Assembly: GCA_964373055.1 (NCBI GenBank)
Contig: CAYJTM010000001.1
Coordinates: 28,688-92,687 of the forward strand
Source of the DNA: an uncultured Planctomycetia bacterium
Lineage (GTDB): Bacteria > Omnitrophota > Gorgyraeia > 1-14-0-20-64-10
Direction: 5' to 3'
DNA length: 64,000 nucleotides
Positions 1-28,764 of the stretch are shown here, piece after piece; the first letter of the stretch is position 1; each line of letters begins with the position of its first letter. Position numbers and translations under genes: made by a program. Below the pieces are notes generated by a model, which saw only the letters and a program-made list of their open reading frames with translations, did no database searches and had not been told where the DNA came from.

Positions 1-1676
1 TGTTCCACCGCCATCGCGGCGGCGATTTCGGTCAACCGGAAGTTGAAGCCGATCAGGTTGGTCAGCGGCTCCGCGCCGGCCTGCTCGGCGACCGCCTCCG
101 CGTGGTTGCGGATCAGGGCCAGCCGGTCCCGCAGCTTCGGATCGCGCGTGACGCAAACCCCTCCTTCCCCGACATGGATCATCTTGTTGACGTTCAGGCT
201 GAAGATGCCGATGTCGCCGAAGGAGCCGACGAACCGCCCGTTGATCTTGGCGCCGTGCGCCTGCGCGCAATCCTCCACCACCTTGAGGCCATGCTTTCGG
301 GCCAGCGCCATCAGCGGCTCCATGTCGGCCGGCAGGCCGAATTGGTGGACCACCACGATCCCGCGCGTCCGCGGAGTGATGCAGCGTTCGATCGAGGCCG
401 GATCCAGGGAACCGGTCTCCAGCTTCACGTCGGCGAAAACCGGGATCGCGCCGTAGACCAGGACGCAGGAGGCCGCCGCCGACATCGTGTAGGGGGAGAC
501 GATCACCTCGTCGCCGTAGCCGAGCCCCAGCGCGCCGATCGCCGCGATGAGCCCCGAGGTGGCGCTGTTTACGCTGACCGCATGGGGGACGTTGTAATAC
601 TCTTCCCAGGCCCGCTCCAACTTTTGGATGGAAGGCCCGCCCCAGAAACTGAAGGGCGGCTCCGGGTTCCAGTTTCCCTCGAAGAGCGAAAGCTGGCCCC
701 TCTGCAGCACCTCCAGCGCGGCTTGTTTCTCCTCTTCGCCGAACGTCTGTTTCTCCGGCGTCGCCATCGCTTGCGCCGCCCAGACCAGCTTCATGGTTTG
801 CGCGGTTTCCTCCAATGGGAAACGCCCTTCCTCCAGCGCCTTGGCCGCCGCTTCGACGGCGCCGGGCATCGATCCCTCCAATCCGCGCCAGGGGGATCCC
901 TCCACGGGCACGAGAACCCGCTCCCCGCGGGGGGTGAGGCGAACCTCCTCCGCCTCGATCCGCTTTCCGAAATCCAGGAAACGGATCCTTCCCTGCTCGA
1001 ATTGGAACTCCCCCTCGAAGAGCAGATAGCCCCGTTCATCCACGGAACGCAGATGGACCGGCGCCTCTCCCACCTGAAGCTCCACGTGGAGGTCGGCGTC
1101 GCTTCCCCGCCCAAACCCGGCCTGCCGGGCGGAAAAGAGCTGGGGTTCCTGCGGGAAGAGCATCCGGAGCAGATCGATCCAGTGGGTGCCGTTGTTGATC
1201 CATCCTCCATAGGTGGTGCAGGACCCTTCCAGCAGCTTTCCGAACCGGTTGGAGCGGGTCCACTCCGCGAGCTTCCGGTGGGGCGGGTCGAACCGCCGCG
1301 TGTGGTTGACTATCACGGTTACGCCGGCCTCCTGGGCCCGCTGCCGGATCTCGGCCAGCTCCTCGGGTTTCAGGCAGATCGGTTTCTCGACGAAGAGCAG
1401 CCGCGGCCGGCGGTCTCCCGCGAAGATCTGCCGGATCTGCGGAAAGTGGAGCTCCGTCGGGCTGCAGAGGGCGATGACATCCGGAGGGCCTCCGGAGAGC
1501 AACTCGTCGAGGTGATGGAAACCCCGCGGGACGCTCCACTCCTTCCGGAAACTCTCCAGCCGGTCCCCCCCCGGATCCACGGCGGCGGTCAAGCGGAAAC
1601 GGGGATGCTGTGAGAAGGCCTTGGCGTGCCGGCGGCCCATCCTTCCGCAGCCAACGATCCCAACGGACCATTTCAT
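1..1676 (-). CDS. Partial (C-terminus beyond window start): fusion protein, N-terminal Gfo/Idh/MocA NAD(P)-oxidoreductase + C-terminal DegT/DnrJ/EryC1 PLP aminotransferase
   Basis: Manual minus-strand translation from ATG at 1676: MKWSVGIVGCGRMGRRHAKAFS... (Rossmann GxGxxG), continuing without stops through ...FGEEEKQAALEVLQRGQLSLFEG...AVSVNSATSGLIAAIGALG...FSLNVNKMIHVGEGG (PLP-lysine motif) to position 1. The C-terminal half is paralogous to the stand-alone DegT at 23764..25059. Not in the ORF track because it runs off the edge. Confidence 0.72.
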   Translation of the reverse strand, partial: MKWSVGIVGCGRMGRRHAKAFSQHPRFRLTAAVDPGGDRLESFRKEWSVPRGFHHLDELLSGGPPDVIALCSPTELHFPQIRQIFAGDRRPRLLFVEKPICLKPEELAEIRQRAQEAGVTVIVNHTRRFDPPHRKLAEWTRSNRFGKLLEGSCTTYGGWINNGTHWIDLLRMLFPQEPQLFSARQAGFGRGSDADLHVELQVGEAPVHLRSVDERGYLLFEGEFQFEQGRIRFLDFGKRIEAEEVRLTPRGERVLVPVEGSPWRGLEGSMPGAVEAAAKALEEGRFPLEETAQTMKLVWAAQAMATPEKQTFGEEEKQAALEVLQRGQLSLFEGNWNPEPPFSFWGGPSIQKLERAWEEYYNVPHAVSVNSATSGLIAAIGALGLGYGDEVIVSPYTMSAAASCVLVYGAIPVFADVKLETGSLDPASIERCITPRTRGIVVVHQFGLPADMEPLMALARKHGLKVVEDCAQAHGAKINGRFVGSFGDIGIFSLNVNKMIHVGEGGVCVTRDPKLRDRLALIRNHAEAVAEQAGAEPLTNLIGFNFRLTEIAAAMAVE

Positions 1677-1705
1677 CGCACCGACTCCTGCCGGTAGGCC
1701 TTCCA
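1673..1705. repeat. 33-bp exact direct repeat copy A (tcatcgcaccgactcctgccggtaggccttcca); contains start codon and SD region of gene 1
   Basis: Identical 33-mer re-read base by base at 1673-1705 and 3447-3479. Confidence 0.85.
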
Positions 1706-2482
1706 TCATTTAACGCACGCCATGATGGACCCCGTTGCAAAGAAATCCAAACCCGGTTTATCTTCGGCCCACGCCGCGATTCTTGAGGTAAACTTTGGCC
1801 ACACCCTGGAGAAAGGATACGGAATGATCAGCTTGTTGTAACTGCACTGAGCCGTCACCCTGCAGCCAGCATCCAGAAGCAGACGCCGGAACTGCCCTTG
1901 GGTGTACGTGTTGCGCCGGATCCCGGCCGGTTTCCGGATGGTGAAGCGAACGAGGGCGCGCAGGGGCCCTGTGGTTCTCACGAGAAGGTCGTCGCAACTG
2001 AATTTTCTCGGTACATTAAATACCAGCCTCGCCCCCGGCCTGGCCACCCGAAGAGCTTCTCGGAGGACCTGTCGCGGATCCTCAAAATACTCCAGCAGCC
2101 CCAACCCGATGACCGCGTCGAACGCCTCATCGGGATACGGCAGCGACTCCGCATCCGCGACTTCAGCCGTAAACCGGGACGTCAGCCCCAAATCGCGAAT
2201 GCACTTCTGAGCATGGCGAATCATTTCGGGAACGCTGTCCGCCCCGTGGTATTCGACCTCTCGCTCCTTGAGCAGCTCGATCAAGGCCCCTGACCCGCAG
2301 CCGGCGTCCAACAAACGCTGCCCCTTGAGATCGCCCAGCAGCTCCACCGCCTTGCGTCGCCTCACCAGAAAACTATAGCTGGCCGGATTCGATGGGTTAT
2401 AGAGCTCGCCCCAGCGATTGCCCATGGCGTAGTCGTCGAAGTGCGCCCGAACCACCCTCCGCTGATTGCTGGGAAGAGTCAC
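1706..2482 (-). CDS. Class I SAM-dependent methyltransferase
   Basis: 258 aa; LLDAGCGSGALIELL motif I, acidic post-I; 4-bp overlap with upstream deacetylase. Confidence 0.85.
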   Translation of the reverse strand: MTLPSNQRRVVRAHFDDYAMGNRWGELYNPSNPASYSFLVRRRKAVELLGDLKGQRLLDAGCGSGALIELLKEREVEYHGADSVPEMIRHAQKCIRDLGLTSRFTAEVADAESLPYPDEAFDAVIGLGLLEYFEDPRQVLREALRVARPGARLVFNVPRKFSCDDLLVRTTGPLRALVRFTIRKPAGIRRNTYTQGQFRRLLLDAGCRVTAQCSYNKLIIPYPFSRVWPKFTSRIAAWAEDKPGLDFFATGSIMACVK

Positions 2483-3450
2483 ACGACACCCATCCGATGA
2501 ATGAGCGGCGTCATCTTCGCCACCAAGATGCTCACTGGAGCGAAGTCATCGATCATGATGCGGGGCAGCCGATAGGGGCCGTCGCCGGATGAGACCATGC
2601 GGAGTTCTGTAGTCCAGGCCGACCGATAGCCGGCCATCCGGATTCCCTGAATCACCCGCTCATCGTAATTTCCGCTGGGAAAAGCAAAGTGGTGAACCGG
2701 CCGGCGGGTCCACTGTTCAAGCAGCTGTTTGGACGTCTGGAGCTCTGCGGCCAACTCCTCATCGCTGAGCTGGGTCAGTTGGGCATGGGTGTGGGAATGG
2801 CTCCCCAGCGTGACCAGATCCCAGTCCAAGCCGCGCAGATGCTCCCGCGATGCGAGCTGGAATCTCTGAAGGCGGGAAGCGGGAGGTTCCCCCAGCTGCT
2901 TTAGAAAGTCCGCCAGGAGCGGCTCTCCCCGCGCTGCATCCGTCTGTTTGAGCATCTTGCTCACCGAGGCGACGACATATCCCCGGTTCCAGGAGCGCAG
3001 GCTCCATCGCTGCCCATCGCAAACCAACTGGGTTTTTGGGCTGTACAGAATGGCCGCGCGCAGACGATCGAACCAGAAAATATCGCTGGAGCCAACGAAC
3101 GCGGTCGGGACAAACCAGGTAGCGGGAAGCCGGTGAGCCTGGAGGGTGGGCAGGATCTCCTGGGCAAACGAAGCGTAGCCATCGTCAAAGGTCAGGGTGA
3201 TCAGCGGTTTCCGGATGTTGGAAGACAGGCTCGCAAGAAATTCTTCGATCCCCACAACATCTGCGTGCTCTTTCAGGAACAGCGCGTGCTTCTTGAAAAC
3301 GCGCGGGTCCACATTATGATAGCTCAAAGCGATCCGACGCTGGCCGGATTCCAAGCGGCCCGCCAAACGCAATAGGCCTGATCCGTGAAGAACCGGGATG
3401 GCCACCCTCTTTAGAACATGCCGGAGTCTGTGATGAGATGGTGGGGTCAT
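2479..3450 (-). CDS. Polysaccharide deacetylase (NodB-like)
   Basis: 323 aa; TFDDGYAS and HSHTH motifs typical of the NodB/CE4 fold. Confidence 0.82.
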   Translation of the reverse strand: MTPPSHHRLRHVLKRVAIPVLHGSGLLRLAGRLESGQRRIALSYHNVDPRVFKKHALFLKEHADVVGIEEFLASLSSNIRKPLITLTFDDGYASFAQEILPTLQAHRLPATWFVPTAFVGSSDIFWFDRLRAAILYSPKTQLVCDGQRWSLRSWNRGYVVASVSKMLKQTDAARGEPLLADFLKQLGEPPASRLQRFQLASREHLRGLDWDLVTLGSHSHTHAQLTQLSDEELAAELQTSKQLLEQWTRRPVHHFAFPSGNYDERVIQGIRMAGYRSAWTTELRMVSSGDGPYRLPRIMIDDFAPVSILVAKMTPLIHRMGVV

Positions 3451-3479
3451 CGCACCGACTCCTGCCGGTAGGCCTTCCA
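3447..3479. repeat. 33-bp exact direct repeat copy B; spans stop of cytidylyltransferase gene / start of deacetylase gene
   Basis: Identical to 1673-1705; here it encodes the C-terminus ...WKAYRQESVR* of the 3447..4211 gene and the ATG of 2479..3450. Confidence 0.85.
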
Positions 3480-4211
3480 GCGCCGCTCCACGCCCCGGTT
3501 TCGATCGGCGAGCTCCGGGTGCTCCTTCATGAATTCAAGGATCTGCGCCAGCCCGAATTCGGGGCCGCGCGGATAGAGATGCTCGTAAACGGCGCTCACC
3601 ACCTCAAAATCCTCGCGCGTATCCACCTCCAGGTAAAGCTCCGGCTGACGGAATCCCGGAGGGGCTTCCAGGTTGCAGATCCGGTACCGCTCCGGCCGGC
3701 CCAGGGTGCCTAAGCTCACATGTTCCCTCTGCTCGGGAGATCGGGCCGTTTGCTCGGCGTCAAACAGGAGGCGGGAGGGATAGACCGTCACCTCCATGCC
3801 GGGCGGATAGGTGGTCTTCAGGGCGCTCGTGACGACGTCGTAGCGGCCCGCGTGCTTGAGGGAGAAACCGATGAACTGGTCGATCAGCAAGGGATCCGGC
3901 AGAGGGCTGTCTCCGAGGAACTCCGCATGAAGATCGCCCGGAAAGGCGCGCAACGCGCCGGCGATACGAGACAGCACATCCTCCTCGCTGCCGCGGAAAA
4001 CCCCTACCCCAAGCCGGCGGGCCAACTCTTCCAGCGGGTCATCCTGCGGGTTGGTGCTGGTGGCCAGGACGATTTGATCAATGAGCCGACTACGGCGCAG
4101 GCGCTCGATCTGCAACTCAATCATCGGTTTGCCCAGGATCGGCAGCAGCACCTTCCCGGGAAGCCGGGAGGAGCCGGTCCGGGCCTGGATCGTCGCCGTG
4201 ACGGTCATCAC
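3447..4211 (-). CDS. Cytidylyltransferase, SpsF/PseF/NeuA-like (CTP:sugar nucleotidyltransferase)
   Basis: 254 aa; IQARTGSSRLPGKVL N-terminal signature of the CMP-sugar synthetase family; paralog of 22393..23157. Confidence 0.82.
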   Translation of the reverse strand: MMTVTATIQARTGSSRLPGKVLLPILGKPMIELQIERLRRSRLIDQIVLATSTNPQDDPLEELARRLGVGVFRGSEEDVLSRIAGALRAFPGDLHAEFLGDSPLPDPLLIDQFIGFSLKHAGRYDVVTSALKTTYPPGMEVTVYPSRLLFDAEQTARSPEQREHVSLGTLGRPERYRICNLEAPPGFRQPELYLEVDTREDFEVVSAVYEHLYPRGPEFGLAQILEFMKEHPELADRNRGVERRWKAYRQESVR

Positions 4212-5332
4212 CCCATCACCTCCGCCCTCAGATCCAAGAGGAGCTCTGCGATCCGGGCCGCCGCGTCGCCTGAGAGCAGCCGGCGCCGGAAGTCGGACTC
4301 CGAAACGGAAACGCCGGCGCCAGAAAAGAGGCCCTCCGACAGGTGGGCCGCGATCCCTTCCGGAGAGCGGGCGGAACGGACCAGGCCTGTCTCGGTCCCG
4401 ATGAAGGGGACGGCGATCCCCTGGGCCGGCTGGTAGCTGACGGCCGGCCGGCCCAGCAGCGCCGCCTCCACCAGGAGCATCGAGGTCATCCCGACCACGC
4501 CATCGGCGGCCAGCAGACAGGCCCAGGGCGGCTCGGCCTGCGCGAGCAGGAACTCCCTGGCGCGCGCCAGCGGGCCGGGCCGAAAGCGATCCCGATCCTC
4601 TTTCGGATGCAGCTTCACCACCCCCTTCAGCCGCCGGCCGTCCCGGCCCTCAACGATCCGGAGCGCCTGCGCCAACCCTTCGAGGGCGTCCGTCTCGGTG
4701 TAGCCCCGGTCATGGGGCGTCCCGCGCCGGAAGTCCTCGGAAAAGAGCTCCGAGGCGAACAGGATCAACGTCGCCGGCTCCTCGCCCATCCAGGCCGCGC
4801 GCAGCTGCCGGGCCTGCTGCAGCAGGCCGGCGTCTCCCGCCATGGCGGCGAGAGACTGCAGATGCGGCTGGCCCGTGATTCTGAGGATCTCCCTGGGAAG
4901 CCCCTCCGCCACTGCCCGCTCCAGAGCGATTTCGTCCATCACGGAGATCTGATTGGGCAGCCTCAGACGGCCGGATCCCGGCTCCACGAACCGCTCCCGG
5001 TAGTTGGACCAATGATCCACCACCGACAACGCGGGAATGCCGTTTTCTTGGCCAAACCGCAGGATCTCTTTTTCGATGCTCCGTCCCCAGGAAGTCCCCA
5101 GCAAAAGGGCCTCAGGCGCAGCGTCGCGCCAGCGCTCGCGCAGGAACCGCTCTCGTTCGCCTCGATCGGCCGGCGCCTCTTCGGCCGCGACCCCTTGCTC
5201 CCGGAAGATCCGCAGCGCCGGTCCCTCAGCGACAACGCGCAGCTGCACTCCAGGGTTGGCCTCCAGCCTTCTTAAGACCGGCAGCAGGATGTTGGCTCCG
5301 CCGGCGTCGCGGGCGGCGACCCAGACTCTCAT
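4208..5332 (-). CDS. GT-B fold protein, PseG/SpsG-like (possible nucleotide-sugar hydrolase or 2-epimerase-like)
   Basis: 374 aa; sits between NeuB-like and cytidylyltransferase genes as in sps/pse loci; C-terminal GVVGMTSMLLVEAALLGRPAV resembles the MurG/PseG C-domain. Family assignment uncertain. Confidence 0.55.
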   Translation of the reverse strand: MRVWVAARDAGGANILLPVLRRLEANPGVQLRVVAEGPALRIFREQGVAAEEAPADRGERERFLRERWRDAAPEALLLGTSWGRSIEKEILRFGQENGIPALSVVDHWSNYRERFVEPGSGRLRLPNQISVMDEIALERAVAEGLPREILRITGQPHLQSLAAMAGDAGLLQQARQLRAAWMGEEPATLILFASELFSEDFRRGTPHDRGYTETDALEGLAQALRIVEGRDGRRLKGVVKLHPKEDRDRFRPGPLARAREFLLAQAEPPWACLLAADGVVGMTSMLLVEAALLGRPAVSYQPAQGIAVPFIGTETGLVRSARSPEGIAAHLSEGLFSGAGVSVSESDFRRRLLSGDAAARIAELLLDLRAEVMG

Positions 5333-6165
5333 GGGGTCTCCCGACCGGCGGCGGTTTTCGGAAACCGGTTTCGGACCCTCTCGCGGATGGCCAGCTCCGC
5401 CTCCACCGGTTTCTTCAGCGCGGTTCCCAGCAGCCGTTCGGCCTGGCGGATCATCCCCACCAGCTCCCGCAGCTCCTCCGGGGTGACCGACAGGACGTGG
5501 TCGGTCCCCGGCAGCGTCTTATCCAGCGTGAAATGCTTCTCGATGACGGTTGCCCCGAGCGCCACCGCGATCACCGGAGCCAGCGCCCCGATCGTGTGGT
5601 CGGAATAGCCGATGGCGTGGTTCGGAAAGGCTTCGCGCAGGGCCTGGATGGCCCGGAGGTTGGCGTCGGAATCCCGGAGCGGATACTGGGTCACGCAGTG
5701 CAGGATAACGACCTGGGGAACCTTCCGGAGGAGGTTCGCCGCCTCCCGGACTTCCCCCAACTCCGCCATTCCGGTGGAAAGATAGACCCTCTGCGCATGG
5801 CCGGCGACGTATTCCAACAGAGGGCGGTTGAGCATCTCCGAGGAGGCGATCTTGATGGAGCGCAGGCCCACCTTCTCGCAGAGGAAGCGGGCCCGCTCCG
5901 GCGTGAAGGGGGCGCTCAAGAACTCCACGCCGTTGTCGCGGGCCAGGGCCGCCAGCTCGAAGTGCATCGCGTCGGGCAGCTCCACCTGATGGAACCATTC
6001 CTTTTCCGGGTCTTGGTCGGAGATGTCCCTGCCCCGGTAGGACTGGAACTTGACGACGTCCGCGCCGGCGCGAGCCGCCTCAATCACCATCTGCCGCGCC
6101 CGGCTCCAGTCCCCGACATGATTCTCGCCGATCTCGGCGATCACCGTCGTGCGTGGGTTCGTCAT
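5329..6165 (-). CDS. NeuB-family nonulosonic acid synthase, TIM-barrel only (no C-terminal SAF domain)
   Basis: 278 aa; IAEIGENHVGD, KFQSY, KIASS, GYSDHTIG, EKHFTLDK motifs of NeuB/PseI/SpsE. Confidence 0.82.
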   Translation of the reverse strand: MTNPRTTVIAEIGENHVGDWSRARQMVIEAARAGADVVKFQSYRGRDISDQDPEKEWFHQVELPDAMHFELAALARDNGVEFLSAPFTPERARFLCEKVGLRSIKIASSEMLNRPLLEYVAGHAQRVYLSTGMAELGEVREAANLLRKVPQVVILHCVTQYPLRDSDANLRAIQALREAFPNHAIGYSDHTIGALAPVIAVALGATVIEKHFTLDKTLPGTDHVLSVTPEELRELVGMIRQAERLLGTALKKPVEAELAIRERVRNRFPKTAAGRETP

Positions 6166-9151: not shown

Positions 9152-11481
9152 GGAATCACCCTGAATAAAAGCACAAGGAGTAAGAGAAAGCTGGCAACGG
9201 ACCCGGTCGTCAGCCGCCTGAGCCAAACAGATTCCTTCGCCGTAAAAACAACGGTGGAAGTGCCCGGCGGCAGTTCAACCACCCAGCGCAGGCCGGAGGG
9301 CTGCAGGACAAGTGGAGATGCGTGTCCATTCGCATCCATCGCCCGAGCGTCCATCCTTCTTAAATCCAGGTGGACCGAGAGCTTCCCGCCTTTTTGTCGG
9401 GGGAGTGCGATGGCGACTCCATAGGGTGCGTGTTGGAGCGGCAGCGGCACTTCCGGTTCATCCAGAAAGTGGGCGACCGGTTTGGCGCTCGGATTCTCGA
9501 ACACCGCCCCGTACTCACCCTCTGCCACGCGGACAAACTTCTGGGGGTGGAGCCGCTGCAGATCGAAGTTGCTTAACCAGTACCGGACACCGTAGTCGTC
9601 GAAGCAGCCCGCCTCAGGACGGACAATCACGTCGCGTCGAGTGAGCATCTGCGTTTCTCTGCTGTCCAGGCGTTTCAGGAACGGGTTTCCCTCCCTCCGA
9701 AGCTCACGATGAACGGGCCCATAGAAATGCAAGTACGACAGCACAAAAGCCAGGCCCTGCCGCATCCACGGACCGTTTAGACGGATGGAGTACAAAACCC
9801 GATTCTGATACTCGCTCGACGCAGTCCAGTAGCCCTTCCAATCTCCTTCTGCGAGCAGCATCTCCGAGGCGCAGAGGACCCCTGCCCGGTAGGTGTAGTC
9901 TGGGATGCGCTCTTGGAGGAACCGAATCTCTCGCGGATGGAACAACGTCGCGTCCAATTCCGAATGCCTTGTGTACAATCCCCATCCATACCCGATACCG
10001 AGCGCCGGTGGCACGATCGCCACGAACAAGGCGATGACCCGAGCTCTCCCTTTCGCGTTCTTGGATCGAAAATAGCCCAGAAGCCCCAGCGCAATCCCTG
10101 CGCAGAAGAGGAGGGTGCCTCGGAAAAAACGAGGAATCTCTGTTCCAGACCCCCCTAGCCCAAGTCGGAAGACAACGTCGGTGAGTGCCTGTTCACCTAC
10201 CATCCACAACGCGATCCCTCCAAGGAGTGCCACCCCCAGGATCAGCCCATAGAGACGGTGCAGCGTCCGCAGCCCTCTCGGGTTCACATTCGTCAGGAGT
10301 GCCTCCATCCCCCCCGCGACCACAAAACCGCTCAGCATTGGGAAGGCAAGCGGCAGCCAGAACGAGAGCGGCCGGAACAGGGGTGAAGGAACCAAGACCG
10401 ATTCTACCGCGAGGAAGAAGATGCAGCACAGCGCAACCCCACGGCCAAGGATCCGAAAGGCGCTCCGCCGCGACTGCCAGAGCGCGAGAAAGCAGGGCGC
10501 GAAGAGGAACGATCCAAAAAACCAGGGGGCCGGAGGAGACAGCCTGCTGATTCCAAGTTTTGCCCAGAGGACAAAAGTCACGCTGGGGACTGGGAAGAGA
10601 AGCCCCAAGAGCTGCGTCGAGCGCGAAAGGTCGATCCCCCACCTTAATGGCGCAACTGCCTCCCGAACCGCTAACCCAGAGCCCACGGTGTAGAGGAGCG
10701 GCCCGAGGATCGGCATCCAGCCGAGAAGCGATCGGGGCCAAACGATCAGGAGCAGCGGCAACACGGAGCCCCAAGCATCCCTCTGCGCAGAGGTGCGTGG
10801 CGGCGCATCCTCTAGCGCCGGCCGCCGGCGGAAGAAAGCCATGAGACCCACTGCCCCTAGAAGATAGGCCTGCGAGGGAATGAGGGAGTGCGATTGAGAC
10901 ACGTACGGCTGAAGTACGTTGGCAAGGATGCACAGGATCAGGTGCCGGCGCTGCCTCGTTGTTAGAAAGAGCGCGTATTCACCGACGGACACGACCAGAA
11001 GAAGCAGGGCGGCCGTGGGATGAATCGCCGCTGTCCACATCGGCCAGGATGCCGCGAAGAAGGCTACCGTGGCCCCCGTCAGGGCGGCCGCCGCAGAGGT
11101 TTGCAGCACGCTGCGGCTATACGCGTAGAGGGTCAGGAAGACCAAGCTGTGCACCCCAACAATGAGCGCTCCCCATCCGGTTTGGTTTGAACCCAACACG
11201 ATGCTGATCCATCGGATGAGATGAAGAGGGTTGTAAACCACGTCATCGCACCACAGCCGCGCGTTCACCGAAAGGTCAAAATAATTGAAAAACCGTCCCG
11301 CCGCTTGGTTGTCGCCGAGCAAGGTGAACATGTGGGCCGCCGGATCGAGAGTCGTGCCGGTCAGGACGCTTCCCGAAGAGAGGAGGATGGGCCCATAGAA
11401 CACAAGCAGGCACAGCGCCAGCACGGCGAAAGGCAACACGCGACTTTTCTCGGTACTGGGAGCCAACACGGGGTCAGGCAT
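9148..11481 (-). CDS. YfhO-family polytopic membrane glycosyltransferase (GT-C-like), paralog 2
   Basis: 777 aa; clear protein- and DNA-level homology to 6860..9151 (tandem duplication). Confidence 0.78.
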   Translation of the reverse strand: MPDPVLAPSTEKSRVLPFAVLALCLLVFYGPILLSSGSVLTGTTLDPAAHMFTLLGDNQAAGRFFNYFDLSVNARLWCDDVVYNPLHLIRWISIVLGSNQTGWGALIVGVHSLVFLTLYAYSRSVLQTSAAAALTGATVAFFAASWPMWTAAIHPTAALLLLVVSVGEYALFLTTRQRRHLILCILANVLQPYVSQSHSLIPSQAYLLGAVGLMAFFRRRPALEDAPPRTSAQRDAWGSVLPLLLIVWPRSLLGWMPILGPLLYTVGSGLAVREAVAPLRWGIDLSRSTQLLGLLFPVPSVTFVLWAKLGISRLSPPAPWFFGSFLFAPCFLALWQSRRSAFRILGRGVALCCIFFLAVESVLVPSPLFRPLSFWLPLAFPMLSGFVVAGGMEALLTNVNPRGLRTLHRLYGLILGVALLGGIALWMVGEQALTDVVFRLGLGGSGTEIPRFFRGTLLFCAGIALGLLGYFRSKNAKGRARVIALFVAIVPPALGIGYGWGLYTRHSELDATLFHPREIRFLQERIPDYTYRAGVLCASEMLLAEGDWKGYWTASSEYQNRVLYSIRLNGPWMRQGLAFVLSYLHFYGPVHRELRREGNPFLKRLDSRETQMLTRRDVIVRPEAGCFDDYGVRYWLSNFDLQRLHPQKFVRVAEGEYGAVFENPSAKPVAHFLDEPEVPLPLQHAPYGVAIALPRQKGGKLSVHLDLRRMDARAMDANGHASPLVLQPSGLRWVVELPPGTSTVVFTAKESVWLRRLTTGSVASFLLLLVLLFRVIP

Positions 11482-14374: not shown

Positions 14375-15069
14375 CGGACCACCTCCCTGACTCGGTCCGA
14401 AAGCCTCCGGAACTCCTCCGGGGTCGCGCTGAGCGCGTGGTCCCGGATCACGGTCGAGCTCTTGTCCATCGTGAAATGCTTTTCCAGGTAGCGGGCGCCC
14501 CGGTCGATCGCCAGGAAGCAGGCGGAGAGATCGAGGCAGTGGTCGCTGTAGCCGTAGTAGCCCGATTCTTCGAACCGCTCCGGAAACCCCGCAAGGTCCG
14601 ACCCGAAGGCCGGATATTTGGAGCGGCAATAGATGTAGAAAAGGGTTTTTCCGTCCGGCGGCCCGAACGGGAACCGGGGTTCATCCCACATCCCCAGGGA
14701 GACGAAGGTCGGCTTCCCCTCCGCCAGGATCTTGCGGACGAGCTCCGGGCGATCCACCACGGTGCGGGAGGCCACCTTGTAGCGCGGAAGCTCCAATTCC
14801 CGCGCCCACTCCAGCGCCTCCTCCGTGAAGAGTGAGGCCATCAGCTCGATACCGGTTTCCACGCACCAGTCTTTCAGCCGGCGTACCCGCCCGAGGTCCA
14901 TCGCGTTGATCTCCCCCGGCCCGGATCTCCAGCCGAACTGGAACTTGGCGGCGTCCGCCCCGGCGAGCTTCGCCTGGCGGATCATCTCCCGGGCGCGATC
15001 CCAATCTCCGTCGTGGTTCAGCCCGATCTCAGCAACAAGCAGCATGGAGGGGCTCCAGGCATTTTTCAA
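14371..15069 (-). CDS. NeuB-like nonulosonic/ulosonic acid synthase, short form (232 aa, no SAF domain)
   Basis: VAEIGLNHDGD, AKFQ, YKVAS, GYSDHCLD, EKHFTMDK...RDHALSATPEE; second NeuB paralog in window. The start may be the internal Met at 15045. Confidence 0.72.
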   Translation of the reverse strand: MKNAWSPSMLLVAEIGLNHDGDWDRAREMIRQAKLAGADAAKFQFGWRSGPGEINAMDLGRVRRLKDWCVETGIELMASLFTEEALEWARELELPRYKVASRTVVDRPELVRKILAEGKPTFVSLGMWDEPRFPFGPPDGKTLFYIYCRSKYPAFGSDLAGFPERFEESGYYGYSDHCLDLSACFLAIDRGARYLEKHFTMDKSSTVIRDHALSATPEEFRRLSDRVREVVR

Positions 15070-15949
15070 AAGGGGCGGTGAACTCCACCATGTTCCGCCT
15101 CAGGTGAAACGGGGAGGTCTCATCGGTGTTGAAGCCGAAGAGGGCCGTGCAGGAAAGGGAGAAGCCGGCCGACCGCAGCAGGGCGACCGTCTCCTCATCG
15201 AAATGCCCCTCCTGCCCCTCCGGGTAGGAGAAAAGATCTACCGGCTCTCCCAGCTGGCGTTCGATGGCCTGCCGGCTGCCTTGGATCTGGGACTCTTTCC
15301 CTTCCCGGCTCAGATGGGTGAGGATCGCATGGTCCACCGTATGCGCGCCGAACTCGCAGAGACCGGAGCGCCGCATCTGCCGGACCTGATCCCAGGAAAG
15401 GGTGCGGTAATCGGGATAATCGTATCGGGGGTCCACACCCAGCCGCTGCTGCATCTGCGCCAGAACGGGCTCGATCAGACCCGGGGTCTGCTTCAAGGCG
15501 GCCTTGATCTGGCACAGCGCCGCCCTGCGGTCGTCCGGTGTCCGAAGGAGAAACCCAAGCTGCAGGGCGGGCAGGAAAAAATCCGCCTGAGCGGTTTCGT
15601 TGAGGAGGTACTCCACCTTGTCCACCCAGAAAACCCTCTCGGTTCCGATGTGGCCGGAGGAGAGAAAGAAGGTGGCCGGGATGCGCAGCCGTTCCAGGAT
15701 GGGAAACGCCACGTTGTAGTTGTTCTCAAACCCGTCGTCGAAGGTCACGGCGACCGAGCTCTCCGGCAGGGCCCGCCGGGAACTCAGGCGGACCAGCTCG
15801 CGCAGAGACAGGACTTGGTATTCCGCCGCAAGCCGCTCCATCTGACGCTTAAATTCCCCCGCGGGGATCTGCTTGCGGGACGAGTTCTCGATCCCGCGGT
15901 GATTCTGCTCCGTGACGCCGTGGTAAAGGAGGATGACGAATCGACTCAT
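15029..15949 (-). CDS. Polysaccharide deacetylase (NodB-like), second copy
   Basis: Start MSRFVILLYHGV (15949, ATGA overlap); VTFDDGFENNY, HTVDH motifs. Confidence 0.8.
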   Translation of the reverse strand: MSRFVILLYHGVTEQNHRGIENSSRKQIPAGEFKRQMERLAAEYQVLSLRELVRLSSRRALPESSVAVTFDDGFENNYNVAFPILERLRIPATFFLSSGHIGTERVFWVDKVEYLLNETAQADFFLPALQLGFLLRTPDDRRAALCQIKAALKQTPGLIEPVLAQMQQRLGVDPRYDYPDYRTLSWDQVRQMRRSGLCEFGAHTVDHAILTHLSREGKESQIQGSRQAIERQLGEPVDLFSYPEGQEGHFDEETVALLRSAGFSLSCTALFGFNTDETSPFHLRRNMVEFTAPFEKCLEPLHAACC

Positions 15950-16653
15950 GGGGCCATCCCATCCAGGTGTCGCTGCAGGCGCCGGCCGGCCAGCCACCGC
16001 TTGAGGGGCCCGATGGCGGAGAGGGTGGTGCCCCGGGTCAGGTCCTGGGGCACGGCGGCAGGGAGATTCCCGAGCTGAAGCTCGCTCAGGATCTGCTCCG
16101 CCATCTCGGCGGCCAGGAGTGTGGTGTGATAACGCAGGTGGTGTGCTCTCATGCCGGACCGCAGCTGCAGCCGGCGCTGGAGGAGCACTGGGCCGGTGTC
16201 CAGCTTCTCCTCGAGGAGGTGGAGGGTCGTCCCGACGTTGCCGAAATCCCGCTGGTACACGGCCCAGAGGTCGGAATCCAGGCCCCGGTAATCGGGCAGG
16301 ATTCCCCGATGGACGTTGAGGCTGAGACGTCCCAGCCGGTAGACCGCCGGGAGGATCCGGCCGGTCCCGAAGGTAACGAGCAGATCCGGTTGGACCCGGC
16401 GGATCAGGGCTTCGCATTCCGGCTGATTCCCGCTGCGGAACCGATGGAGGCCTCCCGGCGCCTCGAACCGCTCCGAAGCGCCGTTGAACGACTGCTGCTC
16501 AAACCGGTCCTGGAGGCGCCCGAAAGGCGAGTGGGCCGGACGCGCCGGGCCTTTTTCCTCCAGCACGACGGTTAACTCCGCGCAGCGGGCGATGCGGCCC
16601 GCGAAGTACCGGTGGTGACGGGTGTCCGTCGTCAGCAGCAGGCAGCGGATCAC
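15946..16653 (-). CDS. Formyltransferase (Fmt/ArnA N-domain-like; probable sugar N-formyltransferase)
   Basis: 235 aa; SLNVHRGILPDYRGLDS matches the formyl_trans_N catalytic His/Asp region. Confidence 0.75.
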   Translation of the reverse strand: MIRCLLLTTDTRHHRYFAGRIARCAELTVVLEEKGPARPAHSPFGRLQDRFEQQSFNGASERFEAPGGLHRFRSGNQPECEALIRRVQPDLLVTFGTGRILPAVYRLGRLSLNVHRGILPDYRGLDSDLWAVYQRDFGNVGTTLHLLEEKLDTGPVLLQRRLQLRSGMRAHHLRYHTTLLAAEMAEQILSELQLGNLPAAVPQDLTRGTTLSAIGPLKRWLAGRRLQRHLDGMAP

Positions 16654-18101
16654 GGGGCCACCTTCTCCGGTGCTCCGGTTCTCGGGACCGGGGTCTGCGC
16701 AGCTGACGCCTGATGTGCCTGCCGCTGCCGCAGCAGGAACTCGATCAGCTGCAGATCGAAGGGGGTTTTGATCTGGAGACTTTCCTCCCGCGTCATCGTG
16801 ATGTGGCCAACCCTGCGGCCGACGAGATCCTGTTCGGTCAGGATGTCCCGCCAGAGGGCCCGGATCGCCCCGTTGCTCTCGTACAGGCCCTCCCGTTCGA
16901 GGCGGATCTGCCGGTGCATCGCCGGGTTGAGCGGCGTCAGCCCGTTCGGGCCGTGCACGAAATGGAGGTCGGTGTCTTCGCAGACGCTCACCACGCTGTC
17001 GGCCTCATACAGGATCAGGGTGTTCACCGCTTCGCGGATGTGCGCGGCGGTGCGCAGAGGCGCGTGCACGCTCAGCAGCACCAGGATGTCCGGCCTGCTC
17101 CCAAGCTTTTGTTCCAGGTGGGTCACCGCGTCCAGCGCCACTTCGGCTTCCGAGGTCCTCTCCCCGGAGAGCCCCGGAGAGCGCAGCATCGCGGAGATCC
17201 CCTGGACGCCCTGGCAGTGCCGCGCCACCTCGGGGTCATCGGTGCTGACCAGGATCTGCTCGAACAGCTCGGCCTGCAGCGCAGCCTCCAGCGTGTAGTC
17301 GATGAGCCGGGCCCCGGAGAGCTCTTTCAGCACGACGTTGGGCAGATGGGCGTAGCTGTTTTTCGCCTGCACGATCGCGGCGATCTTCAAGCCCGCCGTG
17401 CTGTTTCGGCTATCCACCATCGCCTGCTTGATTTGGCGGCGGGCCTCCAACAGACGCTCCTGCTTGCTGGACTGGGAATCGGCATGCTGACGGTAGAAAA
17501 AGAGGGGCGTCGCCACATTGGCGATCTCGTGCTGGGGGAGCAGCTTCAGCCACAACTCGTATCCGTCCTGGGCGCTGTGGCGCTCGTCATAGCCGCCCAG
17601 CTTTTTCAGCACCTCCCTGCGGACCAGCGTGCCGGCCCCGTGAGCGGGCAGGTCCAGGAACTGGGCCTCCTTCCCGATCCGTTTGCGGTGCTCCACGCCG
17701 AGGTAGTTGCCGGCTTCGTCCACGTAGATGTAGTTCGGGTAAACGAGTGCCACCTCCGGATGCCGATCCAAATAAGAGGTCAACACGAGCAGCGCGTTCT
17801 CATCCAGGAAATCGTCGGCGTCCAGCCGCAGGATAGTGTCGCCCCGCGCCGCTTGCAGCGCGGCATTGGCGCCAAACTGCAATCCGCGCGGCGGCGAATG
17901 CCGGATCACCCGGATCCGGTCCGGATGCTCCTTCTGGAAGCCCTCCGCCACCCGCGCCGTCTCATCCTCGGAGCCGTCGTCCACGATGATCAGCTCCCAA
18001 TCCGCGCGGCTCTGGCTCAAGACCGACTCGATGGCCTGCGCGAGATACCGCCCGTAATGGCGGCACGGGATGTAAACCGTCACCTTGGGGATCGAGCTCA
18101 T
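16650..18101 (-). CDS. Bifunctional: N-terminal GT2 glycosyltransferase + C-terminal acylneuraminate (CMP-NeuAc) cytidylyltransferase-like domain
   Basis: Start MSSIPKVTVYIPC (18101, ATGA overlap). N-terminal IIVDDGSEDET...DADD is GT2. C-terminal KIAAIVQAKNSYAHLPNVVLKELSGARLIDYTLEAA...LLSVHAPLR...ESNGAIRAL matches CTP_transf_3. Confidence 0.78.
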   Translation of the reverse strand: MSSIPKVTVYIPCRHYGRYLAQAIESVLSQSRADWELIIVDDGSEDETARVAEGFQKEHPDRIRVIRHSPPRGLQFGANAALQAARGDTILRLDADDFLDENALLVLTSYLDRHPEVALVYPNYIYVDEAGNYLGVEHRKRIGKEAQFLDLPAHGAGTLVRREVLKKLGGYDERHSAQDGYELWLKLLPQHEIANVATPLFFYRQHADSQSSKQERLLEARRQIKQAMVDSRNSTAGLKIAAIVQAKNSYAHLPNVVLKELSGARLIDYTLEAALQAELFEQILVSTDDPEVARHCQGVQGISAMLRSPGLSGERTSEAEVALDAVTHLEQKLGSRPDILVLLSVHAPLRTAAHIREAVNTLILYEADSVVSVCEDTDLHFVHGPNGLTPLNPAMHRQIRLEREGLYESNGAIRALWRDILTEQDLVGRRVGHITMTREESLQIKTPFDLQLIEFLLRQRQAHQASAAQTPVPRTGAPEKVAP

Positions 18102-19192
18102 GGAAGCTCCTTGGCCTTTCCGGTCCGTTGGGATTTGAGCGCCCGCATGAACTCTTCCTCGCTCAGGCCCGTGATCTGAAGGTAGTAATCCAGCTGCCCC
18201 GGCCGCTGGGGATCGAACTTCTTGATCAGCTCGAATCCCTCCTCGCGGGTGAGCAGCCCGGCCCGCACATCCTGGCTGACGTGATCGGTGGCCCGCCCGA
18301 AACCCCGTTTCACGAACTTGGCGTAGTCGTGCACGCCGGCCATCCTGCACTCCACGCTCTTGTACCCCTTGTAGGTCCCCTCGACGTTGTCTTCCCGCCA
18401 GCCGTAAGCGGATTTAAGAAACTCCACTTGCCGCTCGCCGTCCCAGAAGAGGTAGTCGCCGAGAAAGATCCCGCGGACGCCGGCGGCCTGGAGCTCCTCC
18501 GGGGTCGGAAACCGGAACGGGTAGAGGTCCCGGCCCGAGAGCCCCTCCCCCTCCATCCCTTCCACCCCCACCTTCATCGAGACCTTGGGATAGTAGCCCT
18601 CGTCGAACCGGACGGCGTCCTGGTAGCTTGCCTTGTTTCCCGCCTCGGCGACCGATTCCCCCCAGATGATCAAGGGGACGTTGAACTTGACAGCCACCTG
18701 CAGAGGGAAGGAGCCCACGCCCGCGTGGCAATGCCAGCAGGGATCCCCGATCCGGTAGAGGGATTTTTGGGCGATCCGGTTCACCAGGTCGCGGGCCGGG
18801 CTGAACAGCAGGTGGTCCACCCCCATCTTCTCCAGGATGTTCCAGAGATTGTATTCGCCGGTCTCGGTGAACCACCGGTGGCTGAAGGTGCAGGCCAGCG
18901 GCTTCATCCCGTATTGTTTCACCAGCACGTGAAGCTGGAAGGCGCTGTCCTTGCCTCCGCTGATCGGAACCAGGCAGTCGTAGTTGTCTCCGCTGGAGCG
19001 CTTGGCCTCTTCCAGGATCCCGCGCAGCTGCCGTTCTCGTTCGGCCCAATCGATACGCATCTTCTGTTCCGAGCTCTGGCACGCGCGGCAGACCCCCATC
19101 TCATCAAAGAGGGTTCCTTCGGAAGTCTCCGGCATGCAGCAGCGGACGCAGGTGCGCAGGTTCGCGAACAGAGGCCGGCCCGGCGCGCTCAT
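18098..19192 (-). CDS. N-acetyl sugar amidotransferase, PseA/WbuX family (PP-loop ATPase)
   Basis: 364 aa; N-terminal Cys-rich zinc ribbon (CVRCCMPE...CRAC), SGGKDS PP-loop, strong overall similarity to the PseA/WbuX family as recalled. Confidence 0.85.
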   Translation of the reverse strand: MSAPGRPLFANLRTCVRCCMPETSEGTLFDEMGVCRACQSSEQKMRIDWAERERQLRGILEEAKRSSGDNYDCLVPISGGKDSAFQLHVLVKQYGMKPLACTFSHRWFTETGEYNLWNILEKMGVDHLLFSPARDLVNRIAQKSLYRIGDPCWHCHAGVGSFPLQVAVKFNVPLIIWGESVAEAGNKASYQDAVRFDEGYYPKVSMKVGVEGMEGEGLSGRDLYPFRFPTPEELQAAGVRGIFLGDYLFWDGERQVEFLKSAYGWREDNVEGTYKGYKSVECRMAGVHDYAKFVKRGFGRATDHVSQDVRAGLLTREEGFELIKKFDPQRPGQLDYYLQITGLSEEEFMRALKSQRTGKAKELP

Positions 19193-22392: not shown

Positions 22393-23157
22393 TCACGCGG
22401 CGCACGCCTCTTTCTGCGACATCCATTCCAGCGGAAGCCGACCGGCCGCAGCGGCTTGCATCACCGCGTGAAGATCAAAGTCCGGATCCCACGGATGGCA
22501 GGCCGTGAAGACCTCCCGGACCCCATCGAGGTTGTGAGGGTAATTAACGGCAAACGTCCACTCCGGTTTGTGGAGCTGAGCCCAGGGGCCTTCGGCCGCC
22601 AGGTAGCCGATCGAAAATTCTTCGGGATGTTCCGTGAAATAGCGTGTCGAATGCTCCCGGTCCATCGGATCGGTGGTCCGCGCAGCCACCCGGTCAAGCG
22701 CGTCGGCCGAGTAGACCTGGGCCCGGATCCCAATGGGGAATCGGGGCAGCCCCGCAGGGGCGTGCGGGTATTCCCGGGTCACATTGACGGCATAGTCAAA
22801 ACGGCCGGACTGATAGAGCCCCACCACGGCCTCGATCAGCGCCGAGTGGACCAGCGGGTTGTCGCCCAAGAGCTCCACGATGGCGTCCCCTCCGAAACGT
22901 TTCCATGCCTGATGGACGCGCCCGAGCACATCCTCGGCGGGGCCGCGGTGACAGAGAACGCCCAGGCGCTCTGCCCACAAGCTGAGGGGGGCGTCCTCCG
23001 GGCAGTCCGTCGTGGCCAGGACGATCCGGTCCAGACAGCGCGCCTTGGAAACCCGCTCCAGCATCCGTTCGATCATCGGTTTGCCCAGGATCAGCTGCAT
23101 TGTTTTGCCTGGAAACCGGCTGGAGCCCATCCGCGCCACTAGGATCGCCGTCGTCAT
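22393..23157 (-). CDS. Cytidylyltransferase, SpsF/PseF/NeuA-like (paralog of 3447..4211)
   Basis: Start MTTAILVARMGSSRFPGK (23157, ATGA overlap); 254 aa, same length and signature as 3447..4211. Confidence 0.82.
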   Translation of the reverse strand: MTTAILVARMGSSRFPGKTMQLILGKPMIERMLERVSKARCLDRIVLATTDCPEDAPLSLWAERLGVLCHRGPAEDVLGRVHQAWKRFGGDAIVELLGDNPLVHSALIEAVVGLYQSGRFDYAVNVTREYPHAPAGLPRFPIGIRAQVYSADALDRVAARTTDPMDREHSTRYFTEHPEEFSIGYLAAEGPWAQLHKPEWTFAVNYPHNLDGVREVFTACHPWDPDFDLHAVMQAAAAGRLPLEWMSQKEACAA

Positions 23158-23735
23158 GAGCCGTTTCCGAAGCGCCGCAGGAACTCGTTTTTGAGAACGC
23201 CGTATTCGATCACGTCCAGGTATCGGTTCTGTTTGAACGCCGCTTGGCGCCGGCACCCCTCTTCCCTCATCCCGAGGGAGCGGGCAAGCCGCCTCATCGG
23301 CGCGTTGGTTTCGAAGGTTCCGCAGTAAACCCGGTTCAGATTCAGCGTGAAAAAGGCGTGCCGGAGCAGCAAGGCCGCCGCCTCCTTCGAATACCCCTTA
23401 CCCCAGCAGGACCGGTCGCCGATGAGGATGGCGAACTCCCCGGAACGGGAGACCGGATCGATGCTCTTTAAGGCCACGTTCCCGATGTGCTGCCTGTCGC
23501 TCCGGCGGGCCACGGCCAGGATGAGCTCGCTCGCGTTGGAATGGGCCCGCTCGACGTACCGGAGCGCCTGCTCTCTCGAGTAAGGGAACCGGTGGTGCCC
23601 GTTCCCGGCGCAGACCACCTCATCGTTGAACCACTCCGCGTAGGGGCCGAAGGCGTCCTGGCGGCGGAGGGGCCTTAAAAAAACCTTTTTTCCTTGGAGG
23701 AAAGGAACCCCCTGGGAATGGACAGATTTCATCAT
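23154..23735 (-). CDS. GNAT-family N-acetyltransferase (PseH/RimL-like)
   Basis: Start MMKSVHSQ (23735); acetyl-CoA binding-like segment RQHIGNVAL...GKGYSKEA. The N-terminal 71 aa of the ORF track are discarded. Confidence 0.72.
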   Translation of the reverse strand: MMKSVHSQGVPFLQGKKVFLRPLRRQDAFGPYAEWFNDEVVCAGNGHHRFPYSREQALRYVERAHSNASELILAVARRSDRQHIGNVALKSIDPVSRSGEFAILIGDRSCWGKGYSKEAAALLLRHAFFTLNLNRVYCGTFETNAPMRRLARSLGMREEGCRRQAAFKQNRYLDVIEYGVLKNEFLRRFGNGS

Positions 23736-27040: not shown

Positions 27041-28764
27041 GGGTTCAAGAGGAGAGGTGTTCCCTGCTCGACCGGTCCTCCCCGGCTCAGCGTCAAGACC
27101 TGGTCAAACCGAAGCACGCTGGAGAGGTGATGGGCGACGACGAGGATGGTCCGCCGGCCTCTCTGCTCCTCCAACGTCCGGTGGATGTACTGCTCGGAGG
27201 CCGGGTCCAGGGCGCTGGTGGCCTCATCGAGGATCAGGATCTCCGGGTCGCGCACGATAGCCCTGGCCAGCGCGATCCTCTGCCGCTGGCCGCCGGAGAG
27301 GCGGCAGCCGCGATCACCGATAAGGGTGTCATACCCTTCATGCAGCCGCTCCACAAACTCCTCGACGCGCGCGGCGCGAGCGGCGGCCAGGATCTTCTCC
27401 GGCGTGGCCCGGGGGTCGCCGAAAGCGATGTTCTCCCGTATGCTGGCGTGAAAAAGAAAGGGGTCCTGGGCGACAACACCCAGCCGGTCGCGCCAGGAGT
27501 CCAGCGAGAAGGCCTGGATCGGCTCTCCATCCACAAGGATCTGCCCGGCGGTGGGCTCATAAAGCCGGACCAGGAGATCCAGCGCGGAGGATTTCCCGGA
27601 TCCGGAAGGCCCGACGAACGCTGTAAAACTGCCGCGAGGGATCCGGCAGGAGAAGTTCTCCAGGGCGGGCGGCTCATCCGGACGGTAGCGCAGCGCCACC
27701 TCCCGGAATTCGATCTCACGCCGCAGGCCGGCGAACCGGCGTCCCACGGAGGGGGAACCGCCGCCGGCCGCTTCCGCCGCCCGGAGGAAGTCCACGATCC
27801 TCTTCAGGTGGGGCTGGGAGCTGGCGATCGCGGAGAGACTCGTGTGGATCGCCCCGATCCGGGGCGACATCCGGTGCAGCGCGATCACGAATGCCAGAAG
27901 GGAGGGCAGCATCTGTTTGGCCTCGGAGCCGAGCCAAACATATCCGCTGAGCAGAAAAAAGCCGGCCCCCAGCACCATCAGCGAGTCCACCACCGGCTCC
28001 AACACGGAGCCCCAGATGGCGGTGTCACGGGAGGCGGAGGCGCCCCGGCGTGAGATCTCCTGCAACGAACGCATCGCCTCCTCCTGGCGGCTGAACGTGT
28101 GGATCAGGCGGATCCCCTGCACGAATTCGGTGCTGCGCTCATGGAGCCGCTGGGTCGCCTCCGTGAGGGAGCTTGCGTGGCGCTTGACCTCCACGATCAC
28201 GCGCTGCAAAAGACGGGAGATCAGCCCATAAACGATAAATGCGAGCAGGCTGAGCTGCCAGGAGATCGTCAGCAGGATCCCTGCATACACGGCAGCCAGC
28301 AGGCAACTTCGCACGAGGAGGTTTATCTGCGCCAGGAACTGGTGCAGCCACTGGGATTCCTGGAGCAGATGGGTCAAATCTCCCAGGCGGTAGGCGGAAA
28401 CCCGCTGGAACGGAAGCTCCATGATCCGACGGAAAATCCGCTGAAAGCCCTCCATCTGCACCCTGACCTGCAGATGGGCGGTGGCCCAACAGCCCGCGAA
28501 CTGCAGCAGCGATCTGGAAAGCTGGGCTCCGACGGCCAGCAGGACCAGCACCAGGAACAGTTTTCCCTGCCCCAGTTCTGCCAACATCCCGGGAAGCGCC
28601 TGTCCCGCGGAGGGAAAGTTGCCCACAAGGGTGTGAATGGCCAGGACGAGACAACCGATCGTGGCCCCCTCAAAGAAGGCGGCCAAGAGGTTGGCGACAC
28701 CGGCGGCCAGGGCCCACCGCCACCCTGCCCGCGTCACATCCCAAAGGAGATGCCTGGCTTTCAT
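27037..28764 (-). CDS. ABC transporter, fused permease/ATP-binding (type I exporter, MsbA-like)
   Basis: 575 aa; 6-TM N-domain, Walker A GPSGSGKSS, signature LSGGQRQRIALARA, Walker B ILILDEATSALD. Confidence 0.88.
   Translation of the reverse strand: MKARHLLWDVTRAGWRWALAAGVANLLAAFFEGATIGCLVLAIHTLVGNFPSAGQALPGMLAELGQGKLFLVLVLLAVGAQLSRSLLQFAGCWATAHLQVRVQMEGFQRIFRRIMELPFQRVSAYRLGDLTHLLQESQWLHQFLAQINLLVRSCLLAAVYAGILLTISWQLSLLAFIVYGLISRLLQRVIVEVKRHASSLTEATQRLHERSTEFVQGIRLIHTFSRQEEAMRSLQEISRRGASASRDTAIWGSVLEPVVDSLMVLGAGFFLLSGYVWLGSEAKQMLPSLLAFVIALHRMSPRIGAIHTSLSAIASSQPHLKRIVDFLRAAEAAGGGSPSVGRRFAGLRREIEFREVALRYRPDEPPALENFSCRIPRGSFTAFVGPSGSGKSSALDLLVRLYEPTAGQILVDGEPIQAFSLDSWRDRLGVVAQDPFLFHASIRENIAFGDPRATPEKILAAARAARVEEFVERLHEGYDTLIGDRGCRLSGGQRQRIALARAIVRDPEILILDEATSALDPASEQYIHRTLEEQRGRRTILVVAHHLSSVLRFDQVLTLSRGGPVEQGTPLLLNP

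Follow-up and report, generated by a model that had tools for sequence, protein, structure and literature searches.

A 33-bp direct repeat as the probable scar of a two-gene insertion into a sugar operon of an uncultured Planctomycetia bacterium

The window analyzed here is a stretch of 64,000 nucleotides from an uncultured Planctomycetia bacterium (GenBank assembly GCA_964373055.1, contig CAYJTM010000001.1, positions 28,688 to 92,687 of the forward strand). Near its left end lies an operon wherein two genes, encoding a polysaccharide deacetylase and a methyltransferase, are bounded by two copies of a 33-bp sequence. All genes of this region are carried on the minus strand, and successive genes overlap by 4 nt (ATGA or GTGA). 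Transcription proceeds from a NeuB synthase through a 374-amino acid (aa) protein, a cytidylyltransferase, the deacetylase and the methyltransferase to an oxidoreductase–aminotransferase fusion. The features of the region, given in this order, are the following.

5329–6165, minus strand: NeuB-family synthase, 4-nt start/stop overlap.
4208–5332, minus strand: gene 5, conserved 374-aa protein with no Pfam match, 4-nt start/stop overlap.
3447–4208, minus strand: gene 4, the resident upstream gene, 253-aa CTP_transf_3 (SpsF-like) cytidylyltransferase whose start overlaps gene 5 (ATGA).
3447–3479, minus strand: repeat copy B, comprising the last 10 codons of the cytidylyltransferase (WKAYRQESVR) and its TGA stop, an AGGAG ribosome-binding site and the deacetylase ATG (ATGA overlap).
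2479–3450, minus strand: putatively inserted 323-aa polysaccharide deacetylase (PF01522, CE4 type).
1706–2482, minus strand: putatively inserted 258-aa class I S-adenosylmethionine (SAM) methyltransferase (Methyltransf_11/25/31; motif I, LLDAGCGSG), with a GTGA overlap with the deacetylase stop.
1673–1705, minus strand: repeat copy A, between the methyltransferase stop (1706–1708) and the gene 1 ATG (1676–1674), supplying AGGAG and ATG to gene 1.
1–1676, minus strand: gene 1, the resident downstream gene, a Gfo/Idh/MocA oxidoreductase and DegT aminotransferase fusion that runs off the left end of the window.

The 33-mer TCATCGCACCGACTCCTGCCGGTAGGCCTTCCA, which on the coding strand reads TGGAAGGCCTACCGGCAGGAGTCGGTGCGATGA, is present as two exact copies in the window, at 1673–1705 (copy A) and 3447–3479 (copy B), and the coordinates and exactness given for it in the initial annotation were reproduced. 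None of 100 dinucleotide-preserving shuffles yielded a match. There is also no third copy in the window when up to three mismatches are allowed, and the 33-mer thus does not behave there as a common motif, which is the objection that the initial annotation had raised to its own proposal. In a direct-repeat scan of the window, the 33-mer (family D17) is the sole family with 100% identity among the 20 largest of at least 60 families, and no comparable short-range repeat was found among these 20. The identity breaks off sharply at either side of both copies.

The gene geometry at copy B agrees with the arrangement originally described, wherein the end of the cytidylyltransferase gene runs into the start of the deacetylase gene, with the stop codon at 3447–3449 overlapping the ATG at 3450–3448. 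At the opposite end of the gene pair, the methyltransferase stop directly abuts copy A, which appears from its sequence to be a duplicated remnant of the cytidylyltransferase 3′ end. Because each start sits in a repeat copy, the deacetylase and the oxidoreductase have an identical AGGAG-N8-ATG initiation region, with the AGGAG of copy A located 8 nt upstream of the gene 1 ATG. Copy A had originally been described as lying in a 29-nt intergenic gap and as the source of the Shine–Dalgarno sequence and ATG of gene 1. Both of these signals are confirmed. The gap need not be untranslated, given that two extra ATGs are present in the gene 1 frame, one at 1709–1707 (in an ATGA overlap with the methyltransferase stop) and the other at 1706–1704. 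Copy A could be translated from these as an in-frame, 11-residue N-terminal extension of gene 1 (MMEGLPAGVGA). Nevertheless, the ATG at 1676 remains the likely start of gene 1 because relatives start there, just before the GxGxxG motif.

Both genes between the repeats look intact. On direct reading of the translations, the deacetylase retains the TFDDG and HSHTH metal/catalytic motifs and the methyltransferase retains its GCGSG motif. Furthermore, the methyltransferase C-terminus ends at the same residue as that of its closest homologue (on contig L009), and therefore the insert stops exactly at the native methyltransferase stop. Promoter-like and terminator-like matches in the cassette region occur at shuffle expectation. 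The NeuB synthase and the 374-aa protein mark the operon as one for a sugar of the nonulosonic or ulosonic acid type. No protein scored above any curated cut-off in an NCBIfam search, so the sugar product cannot be named. It is a reasonable guess that the cassette enzymes carry out the de-N-acetylation and then the methylation of an amino sugar.

When the cytidylyltransferase was used in a protein search, relatives were recovered at 87, 87, 84, 82, 78, and 74% identity, and their contigs were inspected. The initial annotation had proposed to look for relatives wherein gene 4 abuts gene 1, and this arrangement is present in every close relative found: in all six of the closest lineages, the cytidylyltransferase gene is followed by a Gfo/Idh/MocA gene with a 4-nt overlap and without the cassette. 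The junction DNA was read in five of the relatives. In four of them (L008, L092, L093, and L012 with L004–L007), the junction reads ...CGATGA and the oxidoreductase begins M(S/T/R)(W/R)(T/S)VGIVGCG, and in the most distant (L094, 74%) it reads ...GGCGTGA with a GTG start followed by VSWTVGVIGCG. On the contig of the 82% relative (P0004), the 4-nt overlap leads into a 736-aa Gfo/Idh/MocA–DegT fusion. This is the same fusion as that encoded by gene 1, and the 87, 78, and 74% relatives have a separate oxidoreductase of 317 to 318 aa.

The relatives carry a homologous 33-mer once, at the uninterrupted junction. This junction is also the product expected from recombination between copies A and B, and the earlier proposal that such recombination would join the cytidylyltransferase to gene 1 with an intact junction is thereby matched by what the relatives possess. 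We also scanned GTDB representative genomes, among which the closest named genome is an uncultured Planctomycetia metagenome-assembled genome (MAG), and recovered 80 loci, 78 of them informative in that they had room downstream. The informative loci are spread over many phyla, and in 39 of the 78 the start of an oxidoreductase homologue lies no more than 150 nt from the end of the cytidylyltransferase gene. The deacetylase gene is present at none of the 80.

The two copies share one combination of variable sites and differ from the five relatives at 2, 2, 2, 5, and 12 of the 33 positions, and over the whole cytidylyltransferase gene the nucleotide identity to relatives is 74 to 85%. Because the copies are identical while the cytidylyltransferase genes have diverged, the duplication is younger than the splits from these relatives. 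Zero substitutions have accumulated in copy A, which is now largely non-coding. A degenerate 33-mer scan of JGI metagenomes gave no match, and hence no further strains.

The composition of the cassette differs from that of its surroundings, as the initial annotation had suggested might be checked for the segment between 1706 and 3446. The interior has a GC content of 0.596 compared with a window mean of 0.639, which places it in the lowest 3% of equal-sized sliding windows, and the GC content at third codon positions (GC3) is 0.68 to 0.69 versus 0.79 to 0.86 in neighboring genes. Thus, the original idea of an inserted tailoring cassette is well supported by both the cassette-free relatives and the lower GC and GC3. 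The deacetylase subfamily comprises about 37 proteins at 40% identity or more, with the nearest member 70% identical. In each of the three contexts examined (L009, L010, and L011), a homologue of the same methyltransferase gene comes directly after the deacetylase gene and overlaps it by 4 nt. The other neighbors of the pair differ among these contexts and are an adenosine 5′-phosphosulfate (APS) kinase gene; a set of NeuB, epimerase and acetyltransferase genes; and genes for glycosyltransferases and asparagine synthase.

In one case, a 563-aa ENA protein (P0153), the deacetylase and methyltransferase domains are fused, which supports a joint action of the two cassette genes. These observations indicate that the deacetylase–methyltransferase pair is a functional unit that moves between glycan clusters. 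The homologous modules in L009, L010, and L011 are not flanked by repeats beyond those expected by chance, and their ends have no sequence in common. The idea of end sequences borne by the cassette was therefore rejected, and the repeat is taken to be target sequence rather than a cassette end. In searches for the cassette on plasmids and phages, plasmid matches reached at most 31% protein identity and there was no phage DNA match. The low GC and GC3 of the interior, together with the presence of the module in unrelated clusters of other organisms, suggest that the inserted DNA is of foreign origin.

To what extent the arrangement reflects real DNA can be judged from Logan contigs assembled at k = 31. 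Three independent contigs, from runs ERR4904390 and ERR4904391, match parts of the window exactly over their full length. Two of them arrive from the cytidylyltransferase side and end at base 30 of the repeat, and a 1801-nt contig found in three samples (L001) consists of the 1741-nt interior plus 30 nt of the repeat at each end. Such breaks inside the repeat arise because a de Bruijn graph with k = 31 must break at a 33-nt repeat. Given that contigs from other runs break there, the repeat is present in the raw reads and was not made by the assembler of the window. Both new junctions are thereby reproduced, in that the two genes are bounded in the reads, at either end, by 30 nt or more of the sequence that closes the cytidylyltransferase gene, and an artefact of that assembler is largely rejected. 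These contigs are uninformative on empty-site or circle junctions, as each of the 31-mers of such junctions also occurs in the integrated form.

The explanation that we favor, with a probability of about 0.72, is a recent insertion of a promoterless two-gene module into the cytidylyltransferase/oxidoreductase junction by general rather than site-specific recombination, whereby the target was duplicated. From the sequences compared, the flanking repeats correspond to the sequence found once at the empty site of relatives, as would be expected for an insertion of this type. The target would have been the junction within a NeuB-type sugar operon at which the cytidylyltransferase and the oxidoreductase are translationally coupled. 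The event would have duplicated 33 bp of this junction, in which the AGGAG site and the ATGA overlap lie together with the end of the cytidylyltransferase gene. In this way, the 3′ end of the cytidylyltransferase would stay complete, the old junction would serve to start the deacetylase, and the oxidoreductase would retain its ribosome-binding site and start codon in an identical copy, such that the operon would remain fully expressed and gain two enzymes.

Two routes to this outcome appear most likely, and for both the recombination and the donor are inferred. In one, a small circularized fragment with about 33 bp of homology would enter by a single crossover, which places a direct repeat of that homology at either end of the insert. 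When integration with one-sided homology was assayed in Escherichia coli, products with a duplicated shared segment predominated (PMC3240628). In the other, the module would be joined to the target twice, through microhomology or template switching, with ATG(A) serving at the left join and TGG(A) at the right, and the two joins would fall 33 bp apart in the target. Illegitimate joins typically use microhomologies of 3 to 10 bp (PMC3240628), and TGATGGA is the sequence at the methyltransferase end of the homologous module in L010. Selection would keep only those products with an intact cytidylyltransferase and a translated oxidoreductase, and the boundaries may coincide with ORF (open reading frame) ends because only products with both neighbors working were kept.

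Several observations weigh against this explanation. A stretch of 33 bp is a very short substrate for a single crossover, and the right boundary falls exactly at the methyltransferase stop, for which an unguided event needs either luck and selection or a microhomology that cannot be verified. No donor was found, and with the nearest deacetylase only 70% identical and in another context, the route cannot be reconstructed. Other variable junctions in related clusters lack such a duplication, so that there is one event and no pattern. Finally, the k = 31 contigs would equally fit an empty chromosome together with a separate 1774-bp circle or a tandem array, and the integrated form is asserted by the contig of the window alone.

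This last point raises the possibility of a mis-resolved assembly, wherein the chromosome carries the cytidylyltransferase gene, one repeat and gene 1, and the segment itself, residing in a circle, a tandem array or another genome with the 33-mer, was threaded into the contig at a loop of the de Bruijn graph. Such a loop on the 33-mer does exist in the k = 31 graph, in which either resolution is built from one and the same set of k-mers. SPAdes is commonly run with k = 33, and in a related MAG a comparable short repeat coincides with a 100-N gap. We nevertheless regard this as unlikely. Shared sequence cannot originate in an assembler, and the path becomes unambiguous once the final k exceeds 33. 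In the reads, moreover, the segment has 30 nt or more of the cytidylyltransferase 3′ end at either side, and it is hence flanked by this sequence wherever it resides. A 1.8-kb circle could hardly persist stably without a replication gene, and the same interior contig appears in three samples. A chromosomal arrangement that is real might still have a different history. If the cassette and its repeats were ancestral, then the relatives would have lost the cassette by deletion between the repeats, an event that yields exactly their junction and for which there is a documented precedent in the RecA-independent deletion between repeats of less than 200 bp within a few kb (PMC7145654). This history is very improbable, as it needs an independent loss in every sampled relative. 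It also has to contend with a cytidylyltransferase–oxidoreductase adjacency that spans phyla and with the absence of the deacetylase from the GTDB loci, with repeat copies that are identical although the cytidylyltransferase gene has diverged 15 to 26% from relatives, and with a cassette GC3 that has not drifted toward that of the host genes.

The low GC3, which argues for a recent arrival, similarly counts against the proposal that the module was inserted long ago and that copy A came later, from a separate short duplication or gene conversion that put an efficient ribosome-binding site and ATG before gene 1. Copy A does give gene 1 a good AGGAG-N8-ATG, and a simpler join was possible, in that an ATGA overlap in the gene 1 frame is already available where the methyltransferase gene ends. 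However, two events are needed in place of one and no intermediate is known, and we give this proposal little credence. There is equally little to recommend the 33-mer as the att-like core of a small, cis-mobilizable cassette that would leave as a 1774-bp circle and return under the action of a recombinase encoded elsewhere. The layout resembles the attL/attR sites of islands that restore the 3′ end of their target, the boundaries lie exactly at ORF ends, and the k = 31 graph is compatible with a circular form. Against this, the repeat is simply the local sequence of the uninterrupted junction of relatives; the module occurs in three other contexts without flanking repeats or a shared end sequence; an attC site would not fit into the 29-nt spacer that follows the methyltransferase; the approximately 45 ORFs of the window include no integrase or recombinase match; and the degenerate 33-mer found no match in JGI metagenomes. 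Still more remote is an active operon-junction cassette, recombinase-independent or mobilized in trans, that leaves as a 1774-bp circle via its repeat and re-enters the cytidylyltransferase/oxidoreductase junctions of related strains while carrying a ribosome-binding site and start codon with it. If true, populations would have a means of shuffling glycan-tailoring genes that has not been described before.

Following an insertion by general recombination as favored above, loss of the module by recombination between the repeats, with perfect restoration of the ancestral operon, is possible. For direct repeats of less than 200 bp located a few kb apart, RecA-independent deletion falls exponentially in frequency with distance (PMC7145654). 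Deletion between 33-bp repeats that are 1.77 kb apart is expected to be rare rather than to act as a fast switch, and a role for the cassette as a mechanism of glycan variation, as the initial annotation had considered, is an inference.

Other optional genes are present in the clusters of relatives. In a related Planctomycetia MAG (L005, GCA_947085785.1), an extra 215-aa methyltransferase gene lies between direct repeats at 1489–1537 and 2166–2214 (28 nt exact, 49 nt at 90%), and the second repeat copy is inside a 52-aa ORF that resembles the 5′ remnant of a displaced gene. In a MAG of the same species (L004, GCA_964372395.1), a 100-N gap at 2087–2186 occupies the spot of this repeat. The repeat-flanked methyltransferase gene of L005 may represent a second short-repeat rearrangement in the same kind of cluster. 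In L004 and L005 (3806–5838) and on the P0004 contig, an optional methyltransferase gene (333–335 aa), with or without a radical SAM/SPASM enzyme gene, is located between the genes for NeuB and the 374-aa protein, and in the window and L008 the NeuB gene adjoins gene 5 directly. No repeat scar was found at the NeuB/gene 5 optional-gene junctions of relatives. Junction duplication as a general rule was rejected, as none exists at the NeuB, methyltransferase, radical SAM and gene 5 junctions of L005.

The entire window (1–64000) seems to form a single glycan super-cluster, with its approximately 45 genes on the same strand, in which the following additional features were noted.

15032–16417: second deacetylase.
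16653–18350: GT2–cytidylyltransferase fusion.
22396–23256: second cytidylyltransferase.
28764–30170: sulfotransferase.
36669–38423: phosphoenolpyruvate (PEP) mutase–nucleotidyltransferase fusion, a hint of phosphonate.
57141–58703: B12-binding radical SAM enzyme.

A 585-aa ORF at 50435–52189 with no Pfam match has the lowest GC of the window (0.54, with a GC3 of 0.60) and may be another foreign insertion. In addition, a 41-nt inverted repeat (10783–10823 and 62650–62690), 93% complementary and with its arms 51.8 kb apart, is far longer than expected by chance, and both arms lie inside long ORFs without Pfam matches.

The scar around the two-gene cassette shows, base by base, how an optional module can enter an ATGA-coupled operon junction with neither neighbor broken, namely with the junction duplicated. 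It offers a concrete example of the diversification of a surface-sugar operon in uncultured Planctomycetia-like bacteria, and it draws attention to a deacetylase–methyltransferase pair that travels as a unit, sometimes fused, in nonulosonic acid and other glycan clusters. Neither a new mobility system nor a new regulatory mechanism emerges from it.

How the feature relates to known systems can be read from its anatomy and from the Pfam scan of the whole window, on which an integron, a transposon and an integrase were each rejected. No recombinase or transposase has a Pfam match among the approximately 45 ORFs across the 64 kb, where only glycan and sugar-metabolism families are matched, and the repeat scan of the window found no terminal inverted repeats at the cassette ends. 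The cassette is not a dedicated mobile element. Like the cassettes of integrons, it consists of promoterless genes oriented with the resident transcription unit, and excision as a circle is possible in principle. An attC site is an imperfect palindrome of roughly 57 to 141 bp, whereas the spacer here is 29 nt, too short for attC and without a palindrome of that size, and is a copy of the cytidylyltransferase 3′ end. Neither IntI nor attI was found among the ORFs and sequence of the window. Target-site duplications of transposons usually measure 2 to 14 bp, and the duplication here is 33 bp; unlike a transposon or an insertion sequence, the cassette holds the deacetylase and methyltransferase genes alone and lacks terminal inverted repeats.

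The resemblance is closer to islands and prophages that integrate at the 3′ ends of genes, wherein the attL and attR repeats correspond to the 3′ end of the target gene and this gene is intact after insertion. The difference lies in the lack of an integrase in the cassette or the 64-kb window and in the small size of the cassette (1.7 kb, two biosynthetic genes). Nor does an insert recur with the same att core, as the L009–L011 modules are without repeats and the JGI scan for the 33-mer was empty. Campbell-type integration likewise yields an insert flanked by direct repeats that equal the shared homology, keeps the target intact, and permits a reverse crossover to restore the site. However, the homology here is 33 bp compared with 109 to 950 bp in the E. 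coli assay (PMC3240628), the circle and the donor are hypothetical, and no vector or replicon is involved. In homology-facilitated illegitimate recombination, foreign DNA is joined at very short identities, for which ATG(A) and TGG(A) are the respective candidates at the left and right joins here, but the typical product deletes recipient DNA (PMC3240628), whereas here 33 bp are duplicated. The gain and loss of tailoring genes in polysaccharide and nonulosonic acid clusters is also modular, with an optional module placed between conserved core genes. The feature is thus a well-preserved insertion scar of a known general kind rather than a new element or mechanism, and it differs from other variable junctions, which are scarless, in that its scar is perfectly preserved and its breakpoints can be read.

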